Below, one piece after another: positions 21,631 through 45,219 of a stretch of 64,000 nt of DNA. How positions within the stretch are numbered: the stretch's first letter is position 1; each line of letters starts with the position of its first letter. The notes beneath the pieces are model-generated. The model made no database searches, was not told the DNA's origin, and was given only the letters and a program-made list of their open reading frames with translations. The DNA comes from a virus (Duplodnaviria > Heunggongvirae > Uroviricota > Caudoviricetes): the IMG/VR virus record IMGVR_UViG_3300035682_000015. One strand, given 5' to 3'. The position numbers were made by a program, and so were the translations under genes.

Positions 21631-21866
21631 ATTATAAGATAAAATACTAAACGATAAATCTATTCGTTCATAGTCCTACGTTCCACTCCGGAATTCACTC
21701 ATAGTTTCATCCTTTACTATTTTCTGTATATATTATAATTGTTTTACTCACCGTATATACATTTTACTTTTTACTATACATAGTAAAATAACAATATGTT
21801 CATAATTATTTTTGTTTCAGTGTTCATTTTTACTAATTTACCTATATTTATAATAAAAGATAAGTT

Positions 21867-22373
21867 ATGATTAATTGTACAAAATGTGGGGAAAATAAAG
21901 ATGAGTGTTATTTCAGACCAAGACCAACATTAAAAAGGGGGTTTCAATCTTGGTGTAAAGAGTGTGAATATAAACAAAATCGTCAAAGATATATACCAAA
22001 AGAACGAATTAAAAACGATATAAATCCTGATGAGGTAAAACTATTGGCAAAGAAACGAATGTTAAAACATAGATATTCATTAGAGTATGATGAATATAAT
22101 CAAATGTATAATAATCAAAATGGGGAATGTCTTATATGTGGGGTTAAAAAAAAATTAGGTAGTTCTAAAGGTTTATTAGTAGACCATTGTCATAACTCTA
22201 ATAAAGTTAGAGGATTACTATGTAGTAATTGTAATTCAGGGTTAGGTAAATTTATGGATAACACAAATATACTATTAAAAGCAATTAACTACCTTAATAA
22301 AACAATCCCCCCATTTAATGTGGGGACATTCTGTCCCCCCGTACAGAGTGGGACTTATGAGGGACACGATTAG
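21867..22373 (+). CDS. HNH endonuclease
   Basis: CxxC...LVDHCHNSNKVRGLLCSNCN HNH/EndoVII motif; N-terminal Cys4 zinc ribbon. Confidence 0.75.
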   Translation: MINCTKCGENKDECYFRPRPTLKRGFQSWCKECEYKQNRQRYIPKERIKNDINPDEVKLLAKKRMLKHRYSLEYDEYNQMYNNQNGECLICGVKKKLGSSKGLLVDHCHNSNKVRGLLCSNCNSGLGKFMDNTNILLKAINYLNKTIPPFNVGTFCPPVQSGTYEGHD

Positions 22374-22955
22374 TAATCCGGTATGGTGTTCATTTGTAGT
22401 TATATGTTCATTTGCAATGAACATTCTCATATTTTGAACTTAAACGGGATGTTATGGTAAGTTATGTTTTGTATCAGTGTAGTCAGTTTAAAACTCACAT
22501 GAGTGATACAAATAATAACTTTTAATGGTATTTTGTGTCTCTGTGGTGTCCCATATATAAACAATTTAGTTCGTTGATTAGTGGTCAATTATATACCCCT
22601 GACGGGTCGTTGAAGTAATCCTTCTAACACCTAACGGTTCCAACGCGTCACTAACCATTACTTACATAATTTACTGGGAAACGTATATAGTAAAATAATT
22701 GGTCCTGAGAGTACCTACAGAGGGGAAAAAGTGACTCTACACTATACTTAGACACAATAATGGTGGGAAAAAGTGGTAACAAAGGGTAATGTCCTACACC
22801 TAAAAGGGGGAAAAAGGATTATCCCCAATGAAGAAAGAGACTGACATTTTGTCAAAATCAAGAATTTTAACATAAAAAGTTATTAACAATTCCCCCTGAC
22901 AGTGTTGATAAGTCAATTGTTGATAACTATATTTAGAAAAAGTTATTAACAATAT

Positions 22956-23303
22956 ATGTACTTAGAATCATTTACCTCAAAGTATTCCGGTGAACCTTCA
23001 TACTTATCGGGTTTTACCCCCACTGTCACTATGTCACTTCCTTCGGTTGGTCTATCGACAGATAACACTTATATCGTGGATTACGGTATAGGAGAGTGTG
23101 TTTATTCCTATCAGAGGATGGGAAAAAGAATCAAGCAGGATGTCCTTCAACTAATCAAATGTGATATGTGGAAGGTTATAACTGTAATTAACGAAGAGTC
23201 CCCACTGAATGAGGGGGATTACAAGGACCTGAATATGGAAATCCGGAACCATTCTCTACAGTGTGTTACTGATTTTATAAATCGTAGGGGTCTTTCTGAC
23301 TAA
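22956..23303 (+). CDS. hypothetical protein of island
   Basis: 115 aa ORF starting right after repeat set. Confidence 0.3.
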   Translation: MYLESFTSKYSGEPSYLSGFTPTVTMSLPSVGLSTDNTYIVDYGIGECVYSYQRMGKRIKQDVLQLIKCDMWKVITVINEESPLNEGDYKDLNMEIRNHSLQCVTDFINRRGLSD

Positions 23304-23684
23304 TATGTTTTCTCCACCACTTAGAGAGGATACTATCCGGAGATAGAGTGGGGATAAGAAGTGCCTCAATGATAACAAAACATAACAGGATAAAGGTCAG
23401 ACATAGTAGAACAATAATAATAATCATAGTTTAATTATTTAAGGGTTACCGGTGGTTATCACCGTCAATCCCCAAAGATATGAATAAATTATGACATTAT
23501 CAAACAATCCCCCATTTATTTGAGAATAGTTATTAACCTATAGGATAAAGTACTGAGGGTGAGATGATTATTCGTAATGAAATCCCCATTCTACTGAGAA
23601 TACTAATGATTCCGGGGATAATCCCACCCCCAAGATGGGGGAAATTAAACGATTCTTAATGAAACCCCCAATCTACTGAGAATA

Positions 23685-24380
23685 ATGGGGGAATTAAAAA
23701 TAAAGTACTTACTCCGATTATCATATTCTCAAAGAATGGGGATTTATATTAAATATAAAGCAGGTTGGAGTCTACTCTTCCACCACTCGGTACGCCCCCA
23801 TCCGGACTATCTACCGGTAATGTGGTACAAAGATATAACAAATAATCTACACCACCAAATAAAATGGGGAAAGATTATTAATTATTATTTCAATATATTT
23901 ATATGTATGATAGAGACAAAACCTAAAGATATAACCCCAATCAAAAGAAAGGGGATAGATATGACCGTTAAAGGTCTACAAAAGAAATACCCATTCATAA
24001 TAGGATATAAGGATGATACAACAACTCAATATATATCATTACACTACATTGATTTAATAATAGACCTCAACAAACTATCTGAGTATGCGGATGTCCCGGT
24101 TAACCCATATTGGGAATCATATGTACTTGCGAACCCCCAATACGAAAAAGTATATGCCTTATGGTCCTATTTAGAATTCCCCAATAATGATTTGTTTGGG
24201 GATATTAAAGACCATCCCGGATATATAATACAACAGAAGGTAGTAGAGGACCTCGAATTTATATACTCACACCTACCATCTCAACTAACACTACACTATA
24301 CTCCCAAATCAACTTTCTTCCCCGATGACCCACCAACTTATACCGTGAGATTAAAACCTAACGCATATCTAATGAGGTAA
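23685..24380 (+). CDS. hypothetical protein of island (candidate initiator; start uncertain)
   Basis: 231 aa ORF; stop is immediately followed by 3x23-bp iterons. Confidence 0.35.
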   Translation: MGELKIKYLLRLSYSQRMGIYIKYKAGWSLLFHHSVRPHPDYLPVMWYKDITNNLHHQIKWGKIINYYFNIFICMIETKPKDITPIKRKGIDMTVKGLQKKYPFIIGYKDDTTTQYISLHYIDLIIDLNKLSEYADVPVNPYWESYVLANPQYEKVYALWSYLEFPNNDLFGDIKDHPGYIIQQKVVEDLEFIYSHLPSQLTLHYTPKSTFFPDDPPTYTVRLKPNAYLMR

Positions 24381-24449
24381 CACTCCCGTTGGTTGGTCTC
24401 TGACACTCCCGTTGGTTGGTCTCTGACACTCCCGTTGGTTGGTCTCTGA
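24381..24449 (+). repeat. 3 perfect tandem copies of 23-bp unit CACTCCCGTTGGTTGGTCTCTGA
   Basis: Read directly: copies at 24381, 24404, 24427. Confidence 0.9.
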
Positions 24450-24558
24450 CACCATGTCATGTTAATAACTTTGTTGATAACTTTTTACCTTAACTTATTA
24501 ACAATGTCATACTGTCATGTTGATAAGTTTTTTTGGATATGTCAAATATACCCCCACT

Positions 24559-24589
24559 CCCCCCATCTTTTACCGGGGGGTTTTTTTTT
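24559..24589 (+). terminator. intrinsic terminator
   Basis: CCCCCC-loop-GGGGGG + T9. Confidence 0.5.
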
Positions 24590-24846
24590 AACCCCTCCCC
24601 TAAACACCCCCCATACCCCCTCCCTATCCCCCGTGGGGGTATCCCCCCTCCCCTCCCTCCCCCTTATATAACCCAAATAGGGGGGATAATCCTCTCGATG
24701 ACGTGTATGGGGGAAAAAAACTTTATATGAAAATCGTTTTAAAATTTCTAAAAAAATTTTTGGAAAAAATCCCCCGGTATAAATGGGGTGGTCAAATAGT
24801 GAAAAAAAATTTTTGGAAAAAAATTGATTGTAAAAGGGGAATATCT

Positions 24847-24854
24847 TATCTTTG
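24847..24854 (+). promoter_or_regulatory. -7 promoter element TATCTTTG
   Basis: upstream of 24913. Confidence 0.45.
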
Positions 24855-24912
24855 TTGACTATGGAAAAGATATATTCAATTTGTGGGAATAAAAAACCGA
24901 AAGAAAAGTAAT

Positions 24913-25401
24913 ATGATGATAAGTAAATTAAAGATGTTAAAGATTGGGGAGACCTTGAAGGATTTTAAGTGTTTGGTTTCAAGATTTAATGAGGTAAAGG
25001 GTGATAGAATATTATTGAGGGAGTTCTGTTTAAGAAATAGAAATCCCATATGGGATTTAACGGGTATAAATTATTTCAAGACCGGATTAAAATCTGAGGG
25101 ATTGATTCGGGATGGGGGTAAGAAAAAGGATGACCATTATATTCAAAGGTCTTTATGTATGGAGATTATCTTTAAGGAATTGAATGCTAACCCGGATATG
25201 AATGTTGATGAATTTATTGAATTACTTCGTAAGTATTCATCTACAGTTCAATTGACGGAAGAGGAACATAAGAAAATAACATTATATACGAGGAATACTG
25301 ATATTATGAATTATACGGCTTATGGTGATGTTGGTATAATTGTTAAAGGTCTTAAGGAGATTATTAATTCTACCCCCGCTTATGTAGTTGGGGGTTTGTG
25401 A
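24913..25401 (+). CDS. hypothetical protein
   Basis: ATG MMISKLK; track start is GTG. Confidence 0.5.
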   Translation: MMISKLKMLKIGETLKDFKCLVSRFNEVKGDRILLREFCLRNRNPIWDLTGINYFKTGLKSEGLIRDGGKKKDDHYIQRSLCMEIIFKELNANPDMNVDEFIELLRKYSSTVQLTEEEHKKITLYTRNTDIMNYTAYGDVGIIVKGLKEIINSTPAYVVGGL

Positions 25402-25402
25402 A

Positions 25403-25449
25403 CCCGAACTCCCTCCGGTCGGGATTCAATCCCCCCGCCCCCTTTTTTT
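25403..25449 (+). repeat. conserved C-rich post-gene element, copy 1
   Basis: AACCCnnACTCCCTCCGGTCG..ATTCAA.CCCCCCGCCCCC-T7 shared with 26877 and 33227. Confidence 0.7.
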
Positions 25450-25473
25450 ATGAAAATTAATATATTTATTAGT

Positions 25474-26067
25474 ATGAAAAATTTGTTAAACGAAGAGATT
25501 GGTAAAATTAAAAAAATGATGGGTATATCTCATAAACCAATCAACTTACCTTATCACGAACATCTTATTGAAATTTATTCTGATATTCCCACCGAAATTA
25601 CTGAAAACTCTGAGGTTGATGATAGATATATTGTTATAAATAAAATTAAACATAACGATTTTATTCATAGTCCAAAATTATTTTTGAAGTCTATTAGAAA
25701 ATCATCTCGTGGTGAGATGTTAACCGAATATTCTTTGGAAGAATTGGAGGATATGTTAACATTTAAGTTGGATGGTTATGATATTGGTTATGCTTTGAAG
25801 AAAGGTGATGGTGATGAGTATAATGAAATTGTGTCTGTTTTCAATAATTCGGGAATTAAAGGTATTGGTGATGCGTTAATTAAGTCAGCAATTAAAAATG
25901 GTGGTCGTTATTTGGACCATTATGATGGATTTCTAAGTGGTTTTTACTCCAAACACGGGTTTGAGGAGTATAAACGAGATAAATTTGACCCCCAATATGA
26001 CCCAAACGGTGAATTTAGAGATAAATACGGAGAATCTGATATTATCTATAGAAAATACAACACTTAA
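25474..26067 (+). CDS. GNAT-family acetyltransferase-like protein
   Basis: Motif A-like NSGIKGIGDALIKSAIKNG and GFYSKHGFEEY; weak. Confidence 0.4.
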   Translation: MKNLLNEEIGKIKKMMGISHKPINLPYHEHLIEIYSDIPTEITENSEVDDRYIVINKIKHNDFIHSPKLFLKSIRKSSRGEMLTEYSLEELEDMLTFKLDGYDIGYALKKGDGDEYNEIVSVFNNSGIKGIGDALIKSAIKNGGRYLDHYDGFLSGFYSKHGFEEYKRDKFDPQYDPNGEFRDKYGESDIIYRKYNT

Positions 26068-26105
26068 TAATTGTTTTTGATGTTAATTTATCTTATTATT
26101 TTAAT

Positions 26106-26876
26106 ATGAACGTATTAACAAACACTTTATTGGGGAACGATGTAATCATTGACATAATTGAAGGTCAAATGATTCTACATATTCCACATTCAAAAACAGA
26201 AATACCATTTTATGATGGATTTAATATGAATTATATTGAAAATGAGACCAAATTATTGGTTGATTTTGCTACTGATAAAATTTTTGACATCCCTAATGTC
26301 GAATCTCTAACTTTTGAGTATAATAGAATATTTTGTGACGTTGAAAGATTGGACGATAATGATGAACCATTATTTAATCTTGGTAGAGGTTTTTTTTATA
26401 CCAAAACTGATGACGGAAAAGACCTTAGAGTGTTAGATGATATGGTGAAAAAAAAGATTAAAGAAGAATTTTATGATATTCACCATAATAAATTGAATCA
26501 AATGGTTGAATATAGGTTGAATGAGTATGGTTGTGCAGTAATTATTGATTGTCATTCGTTTAGTGATATCCCATTTATAACTGATTTAGATAAAAGTGAG
26601 GTTAGACCGGACATTTGTTTAGGTGTTGATGATTTTCACACACCAAAATGGTTAATTAATCAAATTAAATCATATTTTGAATATCATAATTTATCTGTTA
26701 AAATAAATTCCCCGTACTCAGGGACAATAATTCCATTAAAATATTATAATAAAAACAAAAATGTTATTGGAATTATGATTGAGGTGAATCGAAAACTTTA
26801 TATGGATGAATTTATTGTTGATGATAATAAGGTTGATGAATTAAATTCTATTATTAAAAAATCTTTATTCATATAA
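26106..26876 (+). CDS. N-formylglutamate amidohydrolase-like zinc amidohydrolase
   Basis: HIPHS...IP and IIDCHS motifs reminiscent of FGase family; weak. Confidence 0.35.
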   Translation: MNVLTNTLLGNDVIIDIIEGQMILHIPHSKTEIPFYDGFNMNYIENETKLLVDFATDKIFDIPNVESLTFEYNRIFCDVERLDDNDEPLFNLGRGFFYTKTDDGKDLRVLDDMVKKKIKEEFYDIHHNKLNQMVEYRLNEYGCAVIIDCHSFSDIPFITDLDKSEVRPDICLGVDDFHTPKWLINQIKSYFEYHNLSVKINSPYSGTIIPLKYYNKNKNVIGIMIEVNRKLYMDEFIVDDNKVDELNSIIKKSLFI

Positions 26877-26923
26877 CCCGGACTCGTTTCACTCGTATTC
26901 AAATCCCCCCGCCCCCTTTTTTT
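26877..26923 (+). repeat. conserved C-rich post-gene element, copy 2
   Basis: see 25403. Confidence 0.7.
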
Positions 26924-26956
26924 TGGATAATATTTGGTGGAATGAAATGTTTGTAT

Positions 26957-26964
26957 TATCTTTG
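26957..26964 (+). promoter_or_regulatory. -7 promoter element TATCTTTG (duplicated unit AATGAAATGTTTGT.TTATCTTTGT also at 27509)
   Basis: direct read. Confidence 0.5.
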
Positions 26965-26982
26965 TTCTTTAAATTTTATAAA

Positions 26983-27495
26983 ATGGTTGATTATCAAACT
27001 TACGAAGAATTACCTAAACGGATTCAATACTATGTGAACTCAATAAAAGAAACGGGTTATGACGATATTAGAAGTTTTCAATTCCCTTGTAAATATTTTG
27101 GGGGTAATTCTTTTGGATGTAGTATTTGGATTGATGCTGAAGAAATGGTAAAAGGTCTCATTCCTTACCGAGGTGTGATTCAAAATATGATAACGAATAG
27201 TTTAACAAAAAATATATTCAATATTGGGTATTTGCATATTTCTGTTCATTATAAAAACAAACAACAGTTGGGTAAGAAATTCCTCCCGGAATTAAAAAAA
27301 CGATTAAAGGAATCTCTTGCCGGTAAATATATTCATTCTGTTCGTTTTGATGAAAACTCTCGTAACAATGACCCCGAAGTTTTTGTTGTGTTAAGACGTG
27401 ATAACGATATTGAAACTTGGGGTATTGTGAAAAATATTCTTGAGGATTTCAAAATTGAAAAAGGTTATCCTAATTTGTATGTTAAAATTTCTTAA
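26983..27495 (+). CDS. hypothetical protein
   Basis: ATG MVDYQTYEEL 18 nt after motif. Confidence 0.5.
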   Translation: MVDYQTYEELPKRIQYYVNSIKETGYDDIRSFQFPCKYFGGNSFGCSIWIDAEEMVKGLIPYRGVIQNMITNSLTKNIFNIGYLHISVHYKNKQQLGKKFLPELKKRLKESLAGKYIHSVRFDENSRNNDPEVFVVLRRDNDIETWGIVKNILEDFKIEKGYPNLYVKIS

Positions 27496-27546
27496 TATTT
27501 GGCCGTATGAAATGTTTGTTATATCTTTGTCGGAAATAAATTGATT

Positions 27547-27690
27547 ATGAGAGATAGAATAAAAAAATGGTGGAATAGGACTTGGTCCAATTGGGAGGTT
27601 GATACTAAGAGTAAGTGGTATTTTTATATTATACTTAAGAGAACATCCAACGATGGTTTAATCCAATTTAAAAAAATAAAAACTGGGGTA
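27547..27690 (+). CDS. small basic protein
   Basis: 47 aa; ATGA overlap with next. Confidence 0.3.
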
Positions 27691-28217
27691 TGAAAAACAT
27701 TTATTTAATTCCGACAGATAAACGGACTCGATTACATTATGACCACACCGGTTTATTTTTATCTCACCATTATCAGGTAAGTAAGGAGATTAATTCAATT
27801 GTTGAAGGCAGATATATCTACATTACATCGGATGAATACATTGGGTTGAATTGGTATATTGATGGTGGCTGGGTAAGAAAGGGTGTTATTGATGATAAGG
27901 ATTATTGGTCTGTTAGAAAGGATTATAAAAAAATCGTTATAACCAATGACCCCAAGTTAATTAAGGATGGCGTTCAGGATATTGGGGACGGTGTGATGGA
28001 TTGGTTCATTGAGAACCCCACCTGTGAATACTTCAATATTGAACAGTACAATTCATATGGGATTGATAATTGGAAGTACTTGGTAACTCTTCCAACGGAT
28101 AAGATTGACTTTGAAAAGGAGTTATCTAAATGGGGTTACAATAAGGGTAATTCAATTGACGTTGAGATTTTGGTTAATGAGATACTTCCAAAATTATTTG
28201 AACAATTTAAAAAATAA
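27690..28217 (+). CDS. modular paralog 1 (N-module MKNIYLIPTDK + diverged central module)
   Basis: Tandem array member. Confidence 0.55.
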   Translation: MKNIYLIPTDKRTRLHYDHTGLFLSHHYQVSKEINSIVEGRYIYITSDEYIGLNWYIDGGWVRKGVIDDKDYWSVRKDYKKIVITNDPKLIKDGVQDIGDGVMDWFIENPTCEYFNIEQYNSYGIDNWKYLVTLPTDKIDFEKELSKWGYNKGNSIDVEILVNEILPKLFEQFKK

Positions 28218-28225
28218 ATAAGATT

Positions 28226-29071
28226 ATGAAAAACATACACGTATTAGGAACAGATAAACCAACTTTTTTACATAAAAGTACAAAAACAGGTATTTTAATG
28301 AAATCATCCGCTTGTATTAATGATATGAAACAAGCACAAGGAATGAACATTTACATCACTTCTGATGAAATAGTTACAAAATATTCAAATGGTTTGTATT
28401 TTATTGATATTTACACAAACACAAGACATATATTTTCACCGATTTATATTAATAAAGATACTATTGCTTTTGGAAAATTTCACACATATATGAATGATGG
28501 TGGTATGTGTAAAAAAATCATCCTAACAACAGACCAAGACTTAATCAAAAATGGTGTACAAGCTATTGATGATGAGTTTTTAGAATGGTTTGTTAAAAAT
28601 CCAAGTTGTGAAAAAATTAGAACTTATTTGACTAAAGTTTTACAAAGTGGTAATCCAACATTTTATAAAGATGATTACAGAATAATCATTCCAAAAGAAG
28701 AACATAAATGTACTTGTGAAAATGGACACCCATATAACAATCTTTGTTGTAAAATACATGGTAAATTCATAAAAGAAGAACCTAAACAAAAATATAAAGA
28801 CTGTAATGGCAATTTAACAGATTGTACTTGTATAGAAGATACTATTGAAATGAAACAAGAAACACTTGAAGAAGTAAGAGATTTATCATATTATAAAGCT
28901 AATGCTGAAGAAGATTATTTAGCAGTTCCAATAAGCGTATTGAGATATATTTCTCAATTAGAGCAACAAGAAAGAAGTTATAGTGAGGAAGATTTAGAAG
29001 TAGCTTATTTTGAAGGTAGAGAAGGATTATATTCATTCAATGATTGGTTTGAACAATTTAAAAAGAAATAA
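28226..29071 (+). CDS. modular paralog 2 (N + central + Cys-rich insert + C-module)
   Basis: MKNIHVLGTDK ... ILTTDQDLIKNGVQAIDDEFLEWFVKNPSCE ... QQERSYSEED..WFEQFKKK. Confidence 0.55.
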   Translation: MKNIHVLGTDKPTFLHKSTKTGILMKSSACINDMKQAQGMNIYITSDEIVTKYSNGLYFIDIYTNTRHIFSPIYINKDTIAFGKFHTYMNDGGMCKKIILTTDQDLIKNGVQAIDDEFLEWFVKNPSCEKIRTYLTKVLQSGNPTFYKDDYRIIIPKEEHKCTCENGHPYNNLCCKIHGKFIKEEPKQKYKDCNGNLTDCTCIEDTIEMKQETLEEVRDLSYYKANAEEDYLAVPISVLRYISQLEQQERSYSEEDLEVAYFEGREGLYSFNDWFEQFKKK

Positions 29072-29075
29072 AATT

Positions 29076-30035
29076 ATGAAAAACATACACATTTTACCAA
29101 CAGATAAACCAAGTAGGTTATGGATGACTAAATTAGGTAATCTAACAAGATGCCACGATATAAAACCTATTAAAGAAGCATTAGGAAATAATGTAAATAA
29201 CTACATCACTTCTGATGAAGAAATTAAAGAAGGAAATTGGTTTGTAAAACCTAAATATTCAAAAGCAATTAAAATTGGATATGAGATTAGTCAAGCTGAT
29301 TCATCTTTTTTTGGAGGGTATGGTTATGATTGGACTGATTGTAAAAAAATCATCTTAACAACAGACCAAGACTTAATCAAAGACGGTGTACAAGCTATTG
29401 ATGATGAGTTTTTAGAATGGTTTGTTAAAAATCCAAGTTGTGAGTTTGTTGAATTGAATAGAAACTATAATCGGGGTAATGGAAAATATTATTACAAAAT
29501 CATCATTCCAAAAGAAGAAGCTAAACAATTATTTACAGACTACCCAATTATTGAATTAGGTGATGACGAATTTAAAGAAGCACCAATAAGAGAATGTGAA
29601 TTACTTTCTTTTGATGATGATGATAATAAGTACTGCTATGTAAAAGTAGGAGGTATTGAAAAAGAAATTAAACGTTGTTATATATACCCACAAAAAGGTA
29701 GATGCGGTGACGTTAATTGTGTTTCAATTAAAGAAATAAAAGAGTTGTTAAAAGAAGAACCTAAACAAGATGCTATTGAATATTCATTAAATGCTTTTAA
29801 AGTTCCAAAAGAATATTTTGGAAAACAAGAAACACTTGGAGAAGCATTATCTGAACATATAAAAGATATAAAATATCCTACTCTAATACAATGTGCTAAA
29901 TTTGGTGCTAAATGGCAACAACAGAGAAGTTATAGTGAGGAAGAAGTTTTAGACTTATTACAAGATTTTGCTAATGACTTATCTGATAATGTAATTAATA
30001 TTAAATTTTGGTTTGAAAAATTTAAAAACAAATAA
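29076..30035 (+). CDS. modular paralog 3
   Basis: MKNIHILPTDKPSRL; central module 97% nt-identical to paralog 2. Confidence 0.55.
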   Translation: MKNIHILPTDKPSRLWMTKLGNLTRCHDIKPIKEALGNNVNNYITSDEEIKEGNWFVKPKYSKAIKIGYEISQADSSFFGGYGYDWTDCKKIILTTDQDLIKDGVQAIDDEFLEWFVKNPSCEFVELNRNYNRGNGKYYYKIIIPKEEAKQLFTDYPIIELGDDEFKEAPIRECELLSFDDDDNKYCYVKVGGIEKEIKRCYIYPQKGRCGDVNCVSIKEIKELLKEEPKQDAIEYSLNAFKVPKEYFGKQETLGEALSEHIKDIKYPTLIQCAKFGAKWQQQRSYSEEEVLDLLQDFANDLSDNVINIKFWFEKFKNK

Positions 30036-30036
30036 G

Positions 30037-30261
30037 ATGAAAGAAACACTTGAAGAAGCTGCTGAAAGAAGATTTCCAAGTAAAACGGAAATGTACGATG
30101 TTTTTATTGAAGGCTCTAAATGGCAACAAGAACAAGACAAGAATAAGTATAGTGAGGAAGATATGCACAATTTAATGGATGAATACCAAAATTGGTTATT
30201 TAATACTAATACCGTAGTATTAACTTTTAGAGAATGGTTTGAACAATTTAAAAACAAATAA
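30037..30261 (+). CDS. stand-alone C-module protein
   Basis: KWQQEQDKNKYSEEDM...WFEQFKNK. Confidence 0.45.
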   Translation: MKETLEEAAERRFPSKTEMYDVFIEGSKWQQEQDKNKYSEEDMHNLMDEYQNWLFNTNTVVLTFREWFEQFKNK

Positions 30262-30265
30262 AATT

Positions 30266-31276
30266 ATGAAAAACGTACACGTACTACCAACAGATAAAAC
30301 GAGTAGGTTAGTTTTAGATGTAAACAATAATTTAGCATTAGCCTTTAATAAATCTATTGAAGAAAATGCGCTGTATAAAAGAACCATCTACATCACTAAT
30401 GATGAAGAAATTAAAGAAAATACCAATGTAAAAGACAAATGGGTAATTTCTGAATATGGTTTTGTTGTAAAAGCAGATAGGATTGAAAACAATTACCTTA
30501 TACACTCAACTGGAGGTTCTAATTTTTTACATCATTATAAATTTATAATTATGACAACAGACCCTCAACTTATTCAAGATGGTGTACAACCTATTGATGA
30601 TGAGTTTTTAGAATTTATAGTTAAGAATCCAAGTTGTGAGTGGGTTGAGGTTGACAAAAATTGGAATTACCCATTAGATAAAAGTTGGGAATATAAATTA
30701 AGAATCATTCCAAAAGAAGAACCTAAACAACTATTTACAAAAGGAGATAAAGTATTGTTTACAGGAAAAATGTTAGATGAAAATGTTGTTGATAAAGTAG
30801 TAACAGTATTTTATACATTAGGTAGAGGAGAGATAGATGATATGTCAGATATAATGGATGAATACACTCACGTTTATAGAGTTTGGAATAAAGATTTAAA
30901 ACACACTTCAAAAGAAGAACCATTAAGTTTTGAAGAATTTAGAAAAATTGCTTCTAAAGAATTACTTGAAAAATTTGATACTGATTGTTTAGAATATTCA
31001 GAAGATGGAGATTTTGATAATTACTTTTACGCTAATTGTAAATATTGGGAAAGTAAACTAAAAGAAGAACCTAAACAAGAATTTGGTTATACTACTAAGA
31101 TGGGTGTTGAGGTTAAGGATGAGATGGTTAGACCACTTATGGTTCCAAAGAAATATTTTGGTGAGGTGGAACATCCGGATTATAGTTCAGTGTTTGATTT
31201 TTTATCCGATAAGGATTACTTAACAGACAAACGAGAAGTTATTGAGAAAGAATTTAAAGAATATTTAAAAAAATAA
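30266..31276 (+). CDS. modular paralog 4
   Basis: MKNVHVLPTDKTSRL; PKEEPKQ linkers x2. Confidence 0.55.
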   Translation: MKNVHVLPTDKTSRLVLDVNNNLALAFNKSIEENALYKRTIYITNDEEIKENTNVKDKWVISEYGFVVKADRIENNYLIHSTGGSNFLHHYKFIIMTTDPQLIQDGVQPIDDEFLEFIVKNPSCEWVEVDKNWNYPLDKSWEYKLRIIPKEEPKQLFTKGDKVLFTGKMLDENVVDKVVTVFYTLGRGEIDDMSDIMDEYTHVYRVWNKDLKHTSKEEPLSFEEFRKIASKELLEKFDTDCLEYSEDGDFDNYFYANCKYWESKLKEEPKQEFGYTTKMGVEVKDEMVRPLMVPKKYFGEVEHPDYSSVFDFLSDKDYLTDKREVIEKEFKEYLKK

Positions 31277-31279
31277 AAT

Positions 31280-33009: not shown

Positions 33010-33225
33010 ATGAGTGAATTAGTTAATGTCGGTAAGACAATGAAGGGAACCTATCAACAAATTTGTGATGGAGGATTTTTGACCCAATTCCCGGGGTCAG
33101 AGTTTAGAAATGAATCCAAGATAACAGGATTCGGTGATGTGTATGTTAAAAGTGATTTGGTTCAAACTTTTAATGAATTGAAAGAACAAATGACTGAGGC
33201 TAACGGAAGTTTCCCCATTTTGTAA
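33010..33225 (+). CDS. hypothetical small protein
   Basis: 71 aa, followed by C-rich element. Confidence 0.45.
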   Translation: MSELVNVGKTMKGTYQQICDGGFLTQFPGSEFRNESKITGFGDVYVKSDLVQTFNELKEQMTEANGSFPIL

Positions 33226-33226
33226 C

Positions 33227-33277
33227 CCATACTCCCTCCGGTCGATTTCAAACCCCCTCTCCTTTTTTGGTGTTGGG
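33227..33277 (+). repeat. conserved C-rich post-gene element, copy 3
   Basis: see 25403. Confidence 0.65.
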
Positions 33278-33291
33278 GGATATTTATTTAT

Positions 33292-33609: not shown

Positions 33610-33610
33610 T

Positions 33611-35744: not shown

Positions 35745-35749
35745 TAAAA

Positions 35750-35786
35750 AAATCCCCAATTATTTTTTAGTTGGGGATTTTTTTAT
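35750..35786 (+). terminator. intrinsic terminator
   Basis: TCCCCAA-loop-TTGGGGA + T7. Confidence 0.65.
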
Positions 35787-35798
35787 TATCTTTGTCGA

Positions 35799-36059: not shown

Positions 36060-36076
36060 TTAAAAAAGTTAGAAAT

Positions 36077-36505: not shown

Positions 36506-36511
36506 AACAAA

Positions 36512-37434: not shown

Positions 37435-37473
37435 ACCTCCAGTTTCTTTTTAGATTGGGGGATATTTATTTAT

Positions 37474-38339: not shown

Positions 38340-38361
38340 TAAAAACAATTGTGAAAATATA

Positions 38362-38763: not shown

Positions 38764-38790
38764 TAATATACTTATATATAAATCATTATT

Positions 38791-38907
38791 ATGTCTAAAT
38801 CAAAAAAAATAGGGAAACCTAAAAAAAACAGAGTGAATGTTGTTAAGAAATTAAAAATAATGAATAAAAACAACGAAATTCTTTCAAGATTAAAATCAGA
38901 AATGTAA
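38791..38907 (+). CDS. small basic protein
   Basis: 38 aa. Confidence 0.3.
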   Translation: MSKSKKIGKPKKNRVNVVKKLKIMNKNNEILSRLKSEM

Positions 38908-38909
38908 AA

Positions 38910-38941
38910 ATTAACCCCATCCTAATCGGTGGGGTTTTTTG
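38910..38941. terminator. bidirectional intrinsic terminator
   Basis: CCCCATC-loop-GGTGGGG with A-run/T-run flanks; overlaps stop of minus gene. Confidence 0.65.
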
Positions 38942-39944
38942 TTCCATATTTAATTATGATTTCAGTTGTTTCTTTTTGTCTTGAACCACTAATATAAGTT
39001 CTGGATATTTTAACACCTTCATCTATAACCTCATCAATTTGAGGACCCCACTTAATATATATGAGATTGGTTTTTGGGTCGGTATATCCGGCTGCCACAG
39101 TTTCTTTAACACCATTCTCAATCACATCATCAATCATTTTGGGAACACTATTGGTTTCATTTTCTTCCAACCAATCAAGAACACCAACAAGGTCACCATC
39201 TTCACCGGGTGTTTTTGTTTCTTTAACACCATTTTTAATCACACCAGCAATTCTTCCTTTGTGGTGATATACATCATCGTGAGTTTCTATTACACCCTTG
39301 TCAATCACTTTATCAACTATATCTCCACCTACATATTGACGTGGGTGAGAAGTTTTTACACCATTTCCGAGAACCTCATCAATGTCTCCTGTATATTCAC
39401 GAGATTGTAAGGGTGAAATTATTTTAACACCATTTTGTAGGACATCTTCAGCTAAAGTAGAACCACCTACAAAGGCAAAAATGGTTTCCTTCACACCATT
39501 TTCAAGAGTATCATCAACTGATAAGATTCTTTTATCACCCCAATAATTGGTGTTCTTTACCCCATTTTCAATAGTATCCTCAACCGACCAATCCGTTTTC
39601 ATATGAGCCATTTTAGTTTTTTTCACACCATTTTCAAGAGTGTCCTCAAATTGTTGTTTTCTATCCCGGGCATCTCTAAAGAGTGTAACATAAGTTAACT
39701 CTTTATTTATAATATTATCTTCCACCCATTTGGTGATGAGGTGTTGGTTCTGAACGCAATCCAACGAAGCGTAAGCAAAAATACTTTTGAAGAAGTTGTA
39801 ATTATACCATAGAGTTTTATTCTCAGTTAGTTCAATCATCCATTGTTTGGACTCAGTAAAGATTAACCAAGTGGAACCATTATGGGTATAAGTGTCCACC
39901 CCTTTAGTAAATTCATTAATTAATTTATTTATAATTCTTTCCAT
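38922..39944 (-). CDS. repeat protein with ~9 copies of D[TV][LI]ENGVK[EK]T unit
   Basis: Internal ~28-aa repeats read in translation. Confidence 0.6.
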   Translation of the reverse strand: MERIINKLINEFTKGVDTYTHNGSTWLIFTESKQWMIELTENKTLWYNYNFFKSIFAYASLDCVQNQHLITKWVEDNIINKELTYVTLFRDARDRKQQFEDTLENGVKKTKMAHMKTDWSVEDTIENGVKNTNYWGDKRILSVDDTLENGVKETIFAFVGGSTLAEDVLQNGVKIISPLQSREYTGDIDEVLGNGVKTSHPRQYVGGDIVDKVIDKGVIETHDDVYHHKGRIAGVIKNGVKETKTPGEDGDLVGVLDWLEENETNSVPKMIDDVIENGVKETVAAGYTDPKTNLIYIKWGPQIDEVIDEGVKISRTYISGSRQKETTEIIIKYGTKNPTD

Positions 39945-40000
39945 AGAACAAAGATAATAAAACTATTTCTTATCATCAAATAATAAATTATATTTTTTAA

Positions 40001-40297
40001 ATGAAGAGATTGGTTATAGTAAGAAAAGTTTTTGAGATATTATATCCTGATTTAACGGTAATTGTTCGATATAATAAAAAACGATATGTTGAAATAATAT
40101 TGAAAAATGTTAAACAAATGTCTGTCGATGGCACAACTTATAAAGTTATATTATTAATTCCCGGTAAAGATAGTTTGGTTTTAGAAGATTTTGTATCTAA
40201 GTTATTTGCATATTGTTCCATAATAAATGAGGATAATTGTATTATAAAATATTTGGATAAAAAAGGTTCTCGACAAATAACAAAAAAATTAGAATAG
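40001..40297 (+). CDS. hypothetical protein
   Basis: 98 aa. Confidence 0.45.
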   Translation: MKRLVIVRKVFEILYPDLTVIVRYNKKRYVEIILKNVKQMSVDGTTYKVILLIPGKDSLVLEDFVSKLFAYCSIINEDNCIIKYLDKKGSRQITKKLE

Positions 40298-40336
40298 GTT
40301 ATTGATTGGTAAATAAGTTTTATTTATGATTATCAC

Positions 40337-40519
40337 ATGGAAGAAATTAAAATCACAAGAACTATTAAGTTCGCGGACAAAAAATGTATTATGAAACCTA
40401 TGGATGGTGAGACCGGTTTGACTGAAACTTGGAACACCCACCCAAATGTTGATAATCCAAGGGATGTGTTTATGAAACACGAAGGAACCACGTATTATTT
40501 AGTTTCGTCTAAAGAATAA
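40337..40519 (+). CDS. hypothetical small protein
   Basis: 60 aa. Confidence 0.4.
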   Translation: MEEIKITRTIKFADKKCIMKPMDGETGLTETWNTHPNVDNPRDVFMKHEGTTYYLVSSKE

Positions 40520-40523
40520 TTTT

Positions 40524-40552
40524 AACCCCCAGTTAATTTTGGGGGTTTTTTA
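40524..40552 (+). terminator. intrinsic terminator
   Basis: ACCCCC-loop-GGGGGT + T-run. Confidence 0.7.
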
Positions 40553-40565
40553 ATTTAATGTAATT

Positions 40566-41060
40566 ATGAAATTTATTATTTGTTTATTGTTTTGTTGTCT
40601 TGGGTATTCCCAATTACCAACAAATATTGTTATTGGGGATTCTCAAACTCCATATGTTGATTTAAATTCAAAAAAAGTTGTGAAAGTTGTTGGTCTATGG
40701 AAAAAAGGTATTCGCGTCCCAGAGCTTACCAAAATGATTAAGAGACATAATGTCTCACCAATAATTCAAAATGTTTTTTTGTGTATTGGAACCAACGACC
40801 TTTATTATAGAAATGGTGTTGAGAAATTATTTAATTCCATTTGTGTTACATTCCCAAATGCGAAGATTTACGTCATCCAAGGTTCTTGGGGTTGGGGAAA
40901 TCTTAGACACACCAGATATGGTAAAGTTAAAAAATATTACAAACGATACGAGGAATTGGGTGGAACCATAATTGAACCTCCAATTGGAAAAGGTGACCCC
41001 CACCATAACTCTCCGGTGTATAAGAAAATTGGGGAAGTCATTGATAATATGTTATTGTAA
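40566..41060 (+). CDS. secreted SGNH/GDSL hydrolase
   Basis: Signal peptide; blocks IGDSQT, GTND, DPHHN. Confidence 0.65.
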   Translation: MKFIICLLFCCLGYSQLPTNIVIGDSQTPYVDLNSKKVVKVVGLWKKGIRVPELTKMIKRHNVSPIIQNVFLCIGTNDLYYRNGVEKLFNSICVTFPNAKIYVIQGSWGWGNLRHTRYGKVKKYYKRYEELGGTIIEPPIGKGDPHHNSPVYKKIGEVIDNMLL

Positions 41061-41073
41061 TATATTTATTGAT

Positions 41074-41460
41074 ATGAAAATAATAATAACGGAGAGTAAA
41101 TTAAATCAGGCGGTCATTGATTACCTGAACAAAACATACGACACCAATAACATTGGTTGGGAATATGGTATTGATGATTGGGGTAATGAAGTGGATTACG
41201 CAATAAAGTTTTATCAAGGTGATTATGATGAAGACGATACCTTATTTAGATGGTATGGTGAAGATTATTGGGGTAGTGAAGAATCTGAAAGTTATTCGGA
41301 TAAACTTTGTCAAGAAAAAAAAGATAAATCACCAATATTATACTTTGAAGATGATGTTATTTTAAGAACTTTGAACGGGTATTTCGGTAATAATTGGAAA
41401 CAACCATTTATTGAATGGTTTTGGGATAAATTCCATGTTCCTGTCAAAACAATAGAGTAG
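41074..41460 (+). CDS. MKIIITE-leader family acidic protein
   Basis: MKIIITESKLNQAVIDYL; track start 40972 is TTG. Confidence 0.5.
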   Translation: MKIIITESKLNQAVIDYLNKTYDTNNIGWEYGIDDWGNEVDYAIKFYQGDYDEDDTLFRWYGEDYWGSEESESYSDKLCQEKKDKSPILYFEDDVILRTLNGYFGNNWKQPFIEWFWDKFHVPVKTIE

Positions 41461-41812
41461 TGGAAAATATTTAACAAAACACCCTTTTTAGTGGAAAAAA
41501 ACGTCTATTTTAAAGATTTTTTTAATTTTTAATGGAAAATACCTTACATTTGTAATATGATATACCTTATTCTTTATTTTAATATTGGTCTTATACTCTC
41601 ATTACTTTTTTTTATACTGATGAGTATTTCAGAACAAGACATAACTTTTAACGACATTCTTGTTGTTATATTTTTATGGCCTTTAGTAATTTATTATATA
41701 ATCACCGAACACTTTTAAAAATTTGAGATATTTATAAAAACTAGTATATTATTTTACTAGTTTTTATATTAAATAATTCATTATTAATAGTTTAAAAATA
41801 TCAAGACCCAAA

Positions 41813-41840
41813 TTCCCTCCTTACCGGAGGGTTTTTTATT
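41813..41840 (+). terminator. intrinsic terminator
   Basis: CCCTCC-loop-GGAGGG + T-run. Confidence 0.65.
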
Positions 41841-41859
41841 TATACAGATATTTATAATT

Positions 41860-42978
41860 ATGAAAATTAGAATTAAAGAATCTCAATATACTAAATTGAA
41901 TGAAGCCGTAGGTGTTCCAACTAACATTGTTTCAGTTGCACAACAATTATTTGACAAAATGATGATGGAGCTTAAACCAACATCTGATTTACAAACTCAA
42001 TTTAAAAAAACAATTATATTAAAAGGTGATTTCCAAATTAACGATTATAAATTTAAGAAGATAAAATTATCCTTCAACATTGAAGATATTAATGATTATA
42101 GTTTTGATGGGGTTAAAAAACCTAAAGTATTGGTAAATGGTATGACCCACCACGGGAAGGTTGAGATAAACGCTAAATTTAATTATGAAAGAACTCAAGA
42201 CATAAATAATGTGGTGTTATCAATCACTTTTGCCGTTGATTATGGTGTAACCACTCAGGACGTTATTGATGAGTTTAATAAAGAAAGAGTTGTTATGGTT
42301 TCAAGTTTGGCTCACGAACTAAAACACGCATATGATGAATCTGTTAACCCAATAGTTAAAACACCTGAAAGAGTTGAATATCATATTGGTTCTCAAAGAA
42401 GGTTCGGAAATATACCCCCATTAAATAAATTGTTAAATTATATGTATTTTGCTCACACCACAGAAAACTTGGTAAGAGCAACTGAGTTATATGCCGCCTT
42501 AGAAGAGAGTGGGATTACAAAGAAAGATTTTTATAAGTTCATAACAAACCACAGAGTCTATGTTGCGTATAAAGAGGGTTCCGAATTAACTTATGAAGGG
42601 TTGAGGGAAGAATTAAAATTAATTATCCCCCAAATAAAACAAACTTTTGATGATAATGATATGGATTATCCGGATAATGTAACCGACGATGAAATGGTTG
42701 ATTTAACATTACAACAATATTTTAAAACACTATTACAGTGGAGAGGAGGATTAATGAAAGATTTTTTAACTAACGACTTTATGGAAAATATGTTTGGATT
42801 CAGAGGTGCAAAACAAAGGTATTTTGATAAATATTTAAATAAAATAACTAGATTTGGTACTGATTATGAAAAATTCTTTAGATATGAAATTAATCAAACA
42901 AGAAACATTTGTCTTAAGATGATGAAAAAACTAAGTAAAATATATTCCTTAATAAAAGATGAAAACCCCCAACAATAA
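41860..42978 (+). CDS. MKIRIKESQ-leader large protein
   Basis: 372 aa. Confidence 0.55.
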   Translation: MKIRIKESQYTKLNEAVGVPTNIVSVAQQLFDKMMMELKPTSDLQTQFKKTIILKGDFQINDYKFKKIKLSFNIEDINDYSFDGVKKPKVLVNGMTHHGKVEINAKFNYERTQDINNVVLSITFAVDYGVTTQDVIDEFNKERVVMVSSLAHELKHAYDESVNPIVKTPERVEYHIGSQRRFGNIPPLNKLLNYMYFAHTTENLVRATELYAALEESGITKKDFYKFITNHRVYVAYKEGSELTYEGLREELKLIIPQIKQTFDDNDMDYPDNVTDDEMVDLTLQQYFKTLLQWRGGLMKDFLTNDFMENMFGFRGAKQRYFDKYLNKITRFGTDYEKFFRYEINQTRNICLKMMKKLSKIYSLIKDENPQQ

Positions 42979-42994
42979 TTGGGGGTTTTTTTTT
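42964..42994. terminator. bidirectional intrinsic terminator
   Basis: CCCCCAA-loop-TTGGGGG + T9. Confidence 0.7.
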
Positions 42995-43334
42995 AGATTG
43001 AGATTGAATCTATGGTTTTAAAATTACCATTTTTGTAATTATCTTGAGGTGTTGGTTCTCCTACTTGTAGTTCACCTTCAAAATAGTTTTGATAAGAACC
43101 CCAATATTCTTCCATTGACCCGTTTTTTAATTCATACAATGCGTCTTGTGTTTCCTCATCAAACGATGGTTCGCCTTCTCCGTCAACCCATTCATCCAAA
43201 TTTTCAGAGATGTATTGTAAAAAGTCTTCTTCTGTTTCTCCCTTGAAGTTAGGGAATTTTTCGCTATCCAACTCTACCGGAGTGTTTGCGTTGTGGGAGG
43301 TGTAATACTCCGTTTTTCTAAAATGTGATTTCAT
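42993..43334 (-). CDS. acidic hypothetical protein
   Basis: 113 aa. Confidence 0.5.
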   Translation of the reverse strand: MKSHFRKTEYYTSHNANTPVELDSEKFPNFKGETEEDFLQYISENLDEWVDGEGEPSFDEETQDALYELKNGSMEEYWGSYQNYFEGELQVGEPTPQDNYKNGNFKTIDSISI

Positions 43335-43353
43335 AATTGTTTTTTATAATGGT

Positions 43354-43878
43354 TTAATTTTCTTCTACACTTCTTTCATCCATCACCTCACGATAACCTT
43401 CATATAAAGAATCTCGAAGTTCGTATAGACCGTCATACATTTCATCCATATAATCATCGTCCTGAAACATTTTATCATATTCAAACTCTTCATAATTTTC
43501 AATATCATCGTAGTTCTCAGCATATACAAATGCTCCAAGTGGGTCGTAACCTTCGTCTTCATAAGTACCATATATTACAACATCTCCACCAATAACCTCA
43601 ACTATCTTTTGAAAATACTCTGTCGGGACTGACCAAGCAGTTTCAAGAATCAAATCTATCGTTTCTCGATATTCTAAATCTTCACACTCAATCTCTAAAA
43701 ATGTTGACCCAACATTTAACAACATCCAATCTTTATCAATCTCTTTAAAGTCGGTTCCGTATAATGTGTTGACGTGATTTAATAGGTCGTCAGATTTTTC
43801 AAATAACTCAACAAATTTTTTGTGTGTTTCTTCGTTAAGGCCGCCAACCTTAACATAACTTGTCATTGTGTTTGCCAT
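43354..43878 (-). CDS. acidic hypothetical protein
   Basis: 174 aa. Confidence 0.5.
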   Translation of the reverse strand: MANTMTSYVKVGGLNEETHKKFVELFEKSDDLLNHVNTLYGTDFKEIDKDWMLLNVGSTFLEIECEDLEYRETIDLILETAWSVPTEYFQKIVEVIGGDVVIYGTYEDEGYDPLGAFVYAENYDDIENYEEFEYDKMFQDDDYMDEMYDGLYELRDSLYEGYREVMDERSVEEN

Positions 43879-43882
43879 CGTA

Positions 43883-44209
43883 TTAAGATTTAAATTTTTC
43901 TCCTTTTATTTTAACCCATTCCAAATCACCATCCAAGATTAATACATCACTATGTGATGGGACATCTTTAGTGTTTTCTTCGGTGTGTTCATTATCATCA
44001 CCAACAGATTCAATAACCTTAACGAAATCAGTTCCTTTCTCATCGATTGTAATTTTCCATTCACCGTCGTAAAAAAATGACCCTTTGGTTCCTGAGGGAG
44101 TTTTGAATTTAATAGGTTCCCTGTCGGCTGAGTAAGCCTCAACCTCATCAATAATTTGTCCGTCAATTTCTATCAAATCATCGGATGCTCCGTAAATTCT
44201 TGTAATCAT
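43883..44209 (-). CDS. hypothetical protein
   Basis: 108 aa. Confidence 0.5.
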   Translation of the reverse strand: MITRIYGASDDLIEIDGQIIDEVEAYSADREPIKFKTPSGTKGSFFYDGEWKITIDEKGTDFVKVIESVGDDNEHTEENTKDVPSHSDVLILDGDLEWVKIKGEKFKS

Positions 44210-44319
44210 ATTATCGTTTTTTATTTAAGTATAAATAAAAAAATAAATAAAAACAATACCACCGGAAGTAAAACTATGATTTTACATAATTTGTTGATAT
44301 TTATAATAAAAGATAAGTT

Positions 44320-45219
44320 ATGAATACATTTATTTATGGGTTAGTCAGTAAAGAATCACCTAATGAAATTAGATATATTGGGAAATCGGATAATCCTTCT
44401 TATAGATTGAAAAGACATATATATTTAACAAAATACTCGGTTAAAAAAAATAAAAATTTAACACATAAAGATTATTGGATAATTAAAAACAATTATGATA
44501 TTGATTTTATTATCCTTGAAGAGTGTGATAATTTATTATGGAGTGAAAAAGAAAAAGAATATATCTTAAAACACACAAATTTGACAAACACTTCGTCGGG
44601 TGGGTTAGGTGGTTGTGGAATAACTTATAAAATGACTTATGATGAAACTAAATCTTGGATTCAAAAAAATTTAAAAATTAAATCAAAATCAGATTGGTAT
44701 CGTCAAATTAAAACACTTAAATTGCCTGATTATATTTGTAAATATCCCGACCAATCCTACGAAAAAAGAGGTTGGATTAGTTGGATTGATTTTTTGGGGT
44801 CAAATAATAAATTTGATAATGATGTTACCTATATTTCATATGATGAGGCAAAATTTAAATTACGTAATTTTAAATTTAAATGTTCCGAAGATTATCGGAA
44901 ACATCATAGAAATGGGTTAATCCCGTTTGATGTTCCGTTAAAACCTTTCAGATATTATGGTAAAAGGGGGTGGGTTAGTTGGTCAAATTATTTGAGTAAT
45001 AATAAGGTTACCAATATTGATAAAAAATTTGTTTCTTTTGATGAATTTATTAAAATAGTTAAAAAACTTGACATTAAAAGTGGTTATCAGTATAAAAAAA
45101 TAGATAAAACGATTAGAGATAAATATTGTCTTCCCTCAGTCCCATCAACACAATACAAAAATGAGGGTTGGAATGGTTGGGGGTTTAAAGTAAAAAAGTC
45201 CGGAAAACCGGACTTTTAA
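44320..45219 (+). CDS. GIY-YIG-type homing endonuclease-like protein
   Basis: IYGLVSKESPNEIRYIGKSDNPSYRLKRH GIY-YIG N-terminus; repeated KRGW[IV]SW DNA-binding-like modules. Confidence 0.6.
   Translation: MNTFIYGLVSKESPNEIRYIGKSDNPSYRLKRHIYLTKYSVKKNKNLTHKDYWIIKNNYDIDFIILEECDNLLWSEKEKEYILKHTNLTNTSSGGLGGCGITYKMTYDETKSWIQKNLKIKSKSDWYRQIKTLKLPDYICKYPDQSYEKRGWISWIDFLGSNNKFDNDVTYISYDEAKFKLRNFKFKCSEDYRKHHRNGLIPFDVPLKPFRYYGKRGWVSWSNYLSNNKVTNIDKKFVSFDEFIKIVKKLDIKSGYQYKKIDKTIRDKYCLPSVPSTQYKNEGWNGWGFKVKKSGKPDF

Follow-up and report, generated by a model that had tools for sequence, protein, structure and literature searches.

An identical 27-nt unit, probably a phage promoter with its leader, precedes two unrelated endonuclease genes in a putative very large phage of Bacteroidota

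We have analysed a stretch of 64,000 nucleotides (nt) of the IMG/VR record IMGVR_UViG_3300035682_000015, a virus of the Caudoviricetes, which will be called here the window. It contains four endonuclease genes, one of the HNH type and three of the GIY-YIG type (GIY1, GIY44 and GIY53), listed in Table 1 together with the signals that precede them. The HNH gene and GIY44 begin in the same way. The 27-mer ATATTTATAATAAAAGATAAGTTATGA is found exactly twice in the window, both times on the plus strand, and each copy terminates in ATG followed by A, i.e., in the start of an open reading frame (ORF). There was no third copy in the 64 kb, even with up to 3 mismatches allowed, and matches were found in 0 of 100 dinucleotide shuffles (chance expectation, 0 copies). 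The first-pass annotation had pointed to this identical unit including both start codons, and the exact matches bear it out. The identity ends at ATGA, the encoded proteins being unrelated, and the likeness reaches upstream, with 43 of 55 aligned columns matching between 21820-21873 and 44273-44326, including the tract TTTTAC(A)TAATTT. Among the relatives used for comparison (loci designated by L and a number), the second copy is unchanged in L034 and has a single change in L032. The octamer ATATTTAT, the core of the unit, had also been noticed upstream of the other two GIY-YIG genes, and it is indeed there, 30 nt from the ATG of GIY53 and 32 nt from that of GIY1.

Table 1. Features of the window discussed in the text (positions in nt from the first letter of the window).
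Feature	Position	Strand	Description
27-nt unit, copy 1	21844-21870	+	Exact match; ATATTTAT core, AATAAAAGA A-rich leader, TAAGTT spacer, ATG+A of the HNH gene
27-nt unit, copy 2	44297-44323	+	Exact match; precedes GIY44
HNH ORF (Endonuclease_7 type)	21867-22373	+	Pfam PF02945, E 4e-23, residues 65-145; PHROG endonuclease VII, 2e-36
HNH cassette	21797-22296	+	Two TGTTCAT boxes (21797, 21821), promoter/leader unit, HNH coding part
GIY44, divergent GIY-YIG gene	44320-45219	+	Pfam GIY-YIG, E 0.004, below the curated cut-off; C-terminal region with GW-SW repeats
GIY1 cassette	370-1116	-	Gene 371-1003 (-), GIY-YIG and NUMOD3 (Pfam); ATATTTAT at 1036-1043 (-)
Thymidylate synthase gene (thyA)	52118-53266	+	Pfam PF00303, E 6e-94
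Post-thyA insert	53267-54597	+	ATATTTAT at 53285-53292 (+), I-TevI-like GIY-YIG gene (GIY53) 53323-54153, two small ORFs
ATATTTAT, short class, example	4468-4475	+	4-6 nt before the ATG of a resident gene, just past a terminator
ATATTTAT, short class, other plus-strand sites	9587, 12536, 18085, 23895, 25462, 33280, 37462, 41062, 41848, 55965	+	
ATATTTAT, short class, minus-strand sites	20883-20890, 60235-60242	-	

All four endonuclease genes are insertions when compared with the relatives, among which every one of them is polymorphic and clearly not fixed, and in three cases (GIY1, HNH and GIY53) ATATTTAT lies inside the insert. The empty alleles of these three have no promoter at that place, and in them the neighbouring genes are intact and joined by 0-33 nt. 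Given these intact neighbours and the lack of any Rfam intron match in the window, the cassettes lie between genes and not in an intron or intein. A nuclease domain was recognized in each: Endonuclease_7 in the gene at 21867, GIY-YIG in those at 53323 and 371-1003 and, for GIY44, by comparing the profile of its homologs with the other GIY-YIG genes of the window (hhalign, 90.9% probability, E 1e-6). A sequence search of the PDB with GIY44 gave no match. Judged by their sequences, the four genes appear to be free-standing homing endonuclease cassettes, homing itself being putative. The suggestion of the first-pass annotation that these genes move together with their own expression signal is supported by the position of ATATTTAT inside the inserts.

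The HNH gene is missing from all 30 IMG/VR relatives, which have 33 to about 100 nt in the place of an insertion spanning ca. 21734-22296 in the window. IMG/VR provided only distant relatives of the gene, the close ones coming from the protein database. The homologs have 145-159 amino acids, and the last ca. 24 codons of the window ORF extend into conserved flanking DNA. In L064, a JGI metagenome relative that does carry the cassette, the upstream region is identical over 70 of 70 nt and the coding part at 91.4%, with flanks at 63-65%, which is what the exchange of a cassette between diverged backbones would leave behind. Homology to L065 begins at 21797, the HNH homolog there having a different left-hand context, while more distant homologs sit within tRNA arrays. 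Homologs down to 50% identity, in other contexts, all have ATATTTATA(A/G)TAAA-N(5-9)-ATG.

Two other features accompany this cassette. Every HNH homolog, regardless of context, has two or three TGTTCA(N) boxes, ca. 20-25 nt apart and 25-70 nt upstream (21797-21803 and 21821-21827 in the window; also in L065, L068 and L269-L279), which could serve the cassette as an operator or as a recognition element. Highly conserved non-coding blocks are found beside it (21641-21733 and 22296-22950; also L006 4506-4601 and L002 7133-7164), of which the left one is near-invariant across relatives (95% in L064) and is repeated inside some of them. They hold C6..G4-5 hairpins and further TGTTCA boxes (22387, 22405 and, inverted, 22417), and neither an ORF nor a tRNA nor an Rfam match was found in them. 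As distant HNH homologs are located within tRNA arrays, these blocks may be the region of an unrecognised RNA gene.

The GIY-YIG cassettes follow the same lines. GIY1 is missing from all 26 relatives, and its empty site is precise in L409, L410 and L414 (...AAATAA-T-ATGAA...), where the window has ca. 747 nt inserted. This insert contains an outward host-type promoter, TTTG..TATCTTTG (1062-1092, plus strand), facing the displaced gene 1118-1687, which in the endonuclease-less relatives is coupled in translation to the gene before it (TAA-T-ATG). GIY44 was found in three close relatives, L032, L034 and, as a 31%-identical homolog, L033; it is missing in L035, which has tRNA genes at that place, and in more distant relatives. 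The first-pass annotation had also remarked that GIY53 sits just downstream of thyA, as is the case. In L001, L217 and L251 only 0-3 nt, and no promoter, separate the thyA stop from the following ATG; it is at this point that the window has its 1.3-kb insert. GIY53 has GIY-YIG, I-TevI zinc finger, NUMOD3 and I-TevI DNA-binding domains in Pfam. Of 80 relatives, about 30 have a GIY-YIG gene at this site, 55-75 nt past the thyA stop and belonging to several lineages of 30-81% identity, and the others have none. Among the 14 distinct upstream sequences of these genes, 11 have ATATTTAT followed by A(A/T)TAAA or GTTAAA (ATGG in L234) and the remaining 3 a one- or two-base variant of the core.

It is probable that thyA is the target of the neighbouring GIY-YIG cassette. 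In L189 (ca. 5870-5920) a duplicate of ca. 35 nt of the thyA 3' end (..APLSN*) lies behind the GIY-YIG gene, and the functional thyA end upstream of that gene is synonymously recoded; this suggests a target possibly located in the 3' end of thyA and a cassette that may bring a resistant copy with it. Two small ORFs of unassigned function (54157-54590) are also part of the 1.3-kb insert and are not present in L001. The thymidylate synthase itself has a large variable insertion by comparison with the 266-position Pfam profile, being 382 amino acids long in the window, 499 in L001 (7575-9074) and 423 in the cultured phage immuto (27299-28570).

The window has a G+C content of 30.6%. A megablast of positions 20000-26000 against a phage collection found no DNA similarity to known phages, so that its placement rested on the protein matches of ClpP, which is closest to that of a 634-kb uncultured phage (60% amino acid identity) and then to those of the Prevotella Lak megaphages (44%). 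Of the promoter patterns, that of Bacteroidota (TTTG-N17-21-TAnnTTTG) is enriched (17 matches vs. 4.8 expected), and sigma-70 type promoters are not (32 vs. 30.7). These promoter counts and the ClpP relatives indicate that the window belongs to the genome of a very large phage infecting Bacteroidota. The TATAAT present within the 27-nt unit was considered as a host promoter and not accepted, since sigma-70 patterns are not enriched.

The core of the unit is widespread in the window. ATATTTAT is the most frequent 8-mer in the 30 nt upstream of window ORFs, with 34 sites in total. As only ca. 21 were expected and the largest simulated count was 35, its mere presence upstream of a gene is weak evidence, and it is the spacing and the context that carry the signal. 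No less than 11 of the 34 copies are separated from the ATG of an ORF by exactly 4 nt (0.4 expected, maximum of 3 in 200 Markov simulations), and one more site at 5 nt and another at 6 nt make up a short-spacing class of 13, at least 6 of them directly behind a G+C hairpin with a T-run. Among genes with an upstream gap of at most 10 nt, which would be internal to operons, 0 of 46 are preceded by ATATTTAT, vs. 15 of 74 with larger gaps. In the relatives (51 loci, 278 motifs) the first ATG is found at 4, 5 or 6 nt in 51, 57 and 28 cases, respectively, and the distribution is flat in cellular genomes. A position matrix of 20 window sites, in which the 8-mer is invariant by selection, has only a T-rich bias upstream (-15 to -13 and -7 to -4), and the upstream contexts of 121 viral sites are unrelated, which describes an AT-rich element of the -10 type with no conserved -35. 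The endonuclease genes account for 4 of the six or seven sites that have a leader and for none of the 13 with short spacing. The original proposal is supported, with one correction: the unit does travel with the endonuclease cassettes, but it is not private to them, ATATTTAT being probably the general promoter and start signal of the phage, found before many ordinary genes.

Resident genes also have promoter-plus-start units in common, as illustrated by 12517-12578 and 41829-41890 (79% over 62 nt). A family of small proteins with the N-terminus MK(I/L)IITES.. is encoded at 12548, 13073, 33611, 41074, 41860 and, on the minus strand, 20877 and 20529, so that several resident genes share the promoter and the first codons. 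In addition, an element of ca. 57 nt (AACCCGAACTCC..CCCCCCGCCCCCTTTTTTT) is present at the 3' ends of three genes (25401-25457, 26875-26931 and 33224-33280), and it is followed by a ATATTTAT-N4-ATG start at 25462 and 33280.

The distribution of the unit extends well beyond this phage. We scanned IMG/VR contigs, with cellular genomes as a control, for ATATTTATAATAAAAGA, the first 17 nt of the unit, and found it in at least 120 viral contigs. Among the viral matches listed, 86 of 121 (71%) had an ORF beginning with ATG 1-18 nt past the 17-mer (mostly 2-9), vs. 12 of 120 (10%), without any spacing peak, in the cellular genomes. The 76 distinct proteins downstream of these listed viral matches include portal, tail tube, baseplate, head protease and tail fibre proteins, and also about eight GIY-YIG or HNH endonucleases. 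One of the portals has 49% identity to gp20 of Flavobacterium phage immuto, which is related to T4. In immuto itself, (A/C)TATTTATA is found 12 to 24 nt from the ATG, nearly confined to the coding strand, upstream of the terminase (terL), the portal, the tail fibre (ATATTTATAATAAAAacgatATG) and structural genes. Nothing relevant describing the ATATTTAT motif as a promoter was found in the literature searched. Many T4-related Bacteroidota phages have the 17-nt consensus ahead of late structural genes and of further endonuclease genes, so that most of the 27-nt identity would be due to constraint on this consensus and not to common descent.

We consider it quite probable that two independent free-standing homing endonuclease cassettes have the 27-nt repeat as their expression unit, each with its own phage promoter and A-rich leader. 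Since TAAAAA is the core of the start-site motif of Flavobacterium (PMC6028130), the unit can be read as a promoter-like core of the phage, a leader adapted to the host, a spacer and ATG. ATATTTAT(A) would be the phage-specific promoter-like element, of the -10 type, and TAAAAG the A-rich leader, matching the non-Shine-Dalgarno start-site motif of Flavobacteria; a spacer of 6 nt and the start codon would follow, the first 17 nt being a consensus under strong selection. Each cassette would have entered, or been replaced, at its own site along with the unit, and the endonuclease would be transcribed on the phage's own programme (probably the late one), independently of the neighbouring genes, with translation proceeding through the A-rich leader. 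Promoter activity, its timing and a factor reading the motif are what we infer from this arrangement.

Several observations weigh against this interpretation. Promoter function is read only from the position of the motif, and a constant 4-6 nt before the ATG is what one sees more often with translation signals than with promoters. Neither a Lak-A2 region nor the closest catalogued megaphage region, LR745206.1, has the ATATTTAT spacing peak, indicating that the motif is not universal among megaphages; LR745206.1 has AATATATA in place of ATATTTAT, and Lak-A2 has no obvious motif. The loci were sampled around endonuclease genes, so that these are over-represented among the carriers of the unit. 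The resident genes of the window that follow ATATTTAT obtained no function from PHROG or Pfam, and their assignment to a late class comes from other phages and from the lysin-like gene 61782, the only annotated late-type gene among the carriers. Besides, the gene conversion step proposed below rests on 6 + ca. 12 nt.

Other explanations have to be weighed against the cassette interpretation. The low G+C content of the window and the ca. 1.6-fold enrichment of ATATTTAT by itself are what would be expected if the repeat were a chance match in AT-rich, low-complexity DNA. This is, however, already refuted, because the shuffles gave no match even with 3 mismatches and the unit has been kept exactly in L034 and L064 while the surrounding DNA is only 63-87% identical. 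Recombination is a more serious contender, in the sense that the whole identity of 27-47 nt might have arisen when the 5' end of one cassette was copied onto the other, by gene conversion between direct repeats or by illegitimate recombination in homing, with no selection on the sequence. There is a part of the unit that is specific to the HNH and GIY44 pair, namely its last ca. 6-10 nt plus the upstream similarity (12 of 13 positions match). The spacer after the 17-mer varies among HNH homologs (AATTATT, AATTACT, AACT) and among those of GIY44 (ATT in the distant homolog, GAAGTT in L032), and TAAGTT, which is outside the consensus, is shared by the two window genes together with TTTTAC(A)TAATTT; neither is present in the HNH homologs L065 and L269 (AATTAYT; TTTTTATATATAAT) or in the GIY44 homolog L033. 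Given the 17-mer, the chance of six spacer bases matching at the same spacing is ca. 1e-3 to 1e-4, as estimated from base composition. The spacer and the upstream match are thus most likely the trace of a recent copy or gene conversion between both cassettes, in which the GIY44 type was probably the donor and the HNH cassette the recipient. To extend this to the whole unit seems unlikely to us, as the 17-nt core is kept in lineages of both families whose protein identity falls to 31-54%, and also before unrelated genes, and the upstream sequence is more conserved than the coding one (100 vs. 91% and 95 vs. 87%).

Alternatively, ATATTTAT and the leader might be purely a translation initiation signal, acting in AU-rich ribosome loading in a non-Shine-Dalgarno host, with transcription coming from elsewhere. 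The fixed distance to the ATG in the short class would fit, as would the A/U-rich upstream motifs, such as TAAAAA, that Bacteroidota have in place of Shine-Dalgarno sequences. Yet ATATTTAT is found behind terminators and never before the operon-internal genes, its distance to the ATG is anything between 4 and 32 nt in the window and varies within immuto too, and GIY1, which is antisense, needs a promoter of its own, ATATTTAT being the sole shared element upstream. Moreover, the lack of following ORFs at the 17-mer in cellular genomes, including Bacteroidota, indicates that it is not a translation signal of the host. We find this a rather improbable alternative, if somewhat less so than recombination. 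Far less credible is that the unit is an operator or a target mimic bound by the endonuclease or a regulator, along the lines of the autorepression of I-TevI, although that would explain its being common to endonuclease genes. There is a precedent in T4, where homing-site-like operators overlap the late promoters of I-TevI to I-TevIII (PMC2988022), and the conserved TGTTCA boxes upstream in the HNH cassettes recur in the flanking DNA. But the unit is common to an HNH and a GIY-YIG nuclease, which are unrelated, its 17-mer is also found ahead of portal and tail genes, among others, and no sequence like the unit is seen at the empty sites.

The cassette interpretation matches in many respects what is known for T4 and its relatives, in which I-TevI, segB and Aeh1 mobE are transcribed from their own late promoter (PMC2988022). 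As in these phages (I-TevI, I-TevII, I-TevIII, segB and Aeh1 mobE), GIY-YIG and HNH genes are found in or by genes of nucleotide metabolism (td/thyA) or tRNA clusters, with a short phage-specific promoter immediately upstream and a presence that varies between related phages, and the cassette can carry a promoter for the displaced downstream gene (PMC2988022). The differences are that the element here is ATATTTAT(A) and not TATAAATA, that it is followed by a TAAAAG leader with no Shine-Dalgarno sequence, and that the motif is present in all four window cassettes, whereas seven free-standing genes of T4 are promoter-less. Along similar lines, the T4 late promoter system (gp55/gp33/gp45, TATAAATA) also uses an AT-rich -10-type element of 8 bp, without a conserved -35, before virion genes of T4-related phages. 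It depends on the sigma-like factor gp55, with gp33 and the sliding clamp; no gene of this kind was noted in the window, 64 kb of a much larger genome, in which no search was aimed at one. However, ATATTTATA contains the reverse complement of TATAAATA and not the T4 octamer, and many resident genes of the window have the element only 4-6 nt from the ATG, which would leave little or no leader. In immuto the T4 consensus TATAAATA has no coding-strand bias (4 sites on the plus strand vs. 8 on the minus, where nearly all genes are on the plus strand).

The start-sequestering hairpin of the T4 type, whose 5' arm lies upstream of the internal promoter and which prevents read-through transcripts from being translated, is clear only in the L193-type lineage of post-thyA GIY-YIG genes, found in the relatives, in which a 13-bp stem holds the promoter in its loop (dG -18.9, z -2.35); 92% of cells are paired, vs. 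24-59% when slid, and covariation is weak. In the minimum-energy folds of three window genes the start codon is paired to bases lying upstream of ATATTTAT, and these folds are not significant (z -0.44, -1.13 and +0.83). A hairpin of the HNH gene in which TGTTCATAA would pair with the start codon was rejected, as its fold is no better than those of shuffles; its 5' arm is the conserved TGTTCA box, kept in homologs whose leaders cannot pair, and there is no covariation.

The primary promoter of Bacteroidota (-33 TTTG / -7 TAnnTTTG) serves other genes in the window, one of them inside the GIY1 cassette. Unlike it, the 27-nt unit has neither TAnnTTTG nor the TTTG pair (none of the 17 window matches to the pattern overlaps either copy), and the 17-mer is no gene-start signal in cellular genomes. 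There is, nevertheless, a possible parallel in geometry. The host -7 element extends from T-12 to G-5 and ends 4 nt before the transcription start (PMC6847099), so that, if ATATTTAT takes the same position, transcription would begin, with the N4 spacing, at the A of the ATG or beside it, giving a leaderless mRNA. In the 634-kb relative LR745206.1 (L436, 55122-95859), about nine ORF starts within 40 kb have TTAATATATA at 4-6 nt upstream, what looks like the same architecture with another motif. We propose, tentatively, that ATATTTAT-N4-6-ATG and TTAATATATA-N4-6-ATG may be the mark of a large regulon in Lak-related megaphages and other T4-related Bacteroidota phages, with mRNAs that have no leader or almost none. 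A phage-encoded specificity factor would read the motif, which would drift between lineages, and the endonuclease cassettes would represent the leadered, portable version of this promoter. If true, this would explain why, within the window, the TAAAAG leader is found only in the endonuclease cassettes.

As for the rest of the window, ARAGORN detected no tRNA genes and Rfam no RNA families (gathering thresholds for the whole window, E-value mode for 21500-23100). A 276-amino acid ORF (60667-61497) matches the core of class II aminoacyl-tRNA synthetases (tRNA-synt_2, E 6e-14). Four tandem paralogous genes (175-345 amino acids, 27690-31276) have their N-termini and internal repeats of 104 nt in common, and in-frame tandem repeats of 66 nt (22 amino acids) are found inside the ORFs 38922-39944 (minus strand, nine repeats) and 49636-49875 (plus strand, four repeats).

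The arrangement of the endonuclease genes appears to be one already known from phage T4, repeating the T4 picture and not overturning it. What it adds is a testable promoter and start-site consensus for uncultivated, very large phages of Bacteroidota, for which no transcription signals were found described in the literature searched. It helps in gene calling and in the assignment of start codons in these genomes. Selfish nuclease genes would travel as complete expression cassettes, one of which supplies a replacement promoter for the gene that it displaced, and such cassettes would account for the mosaic structure found locally near thyA, tRNA and non-coding regions. Greater novelty lies in the apparently leaderless promoter architecture of these megaphages.

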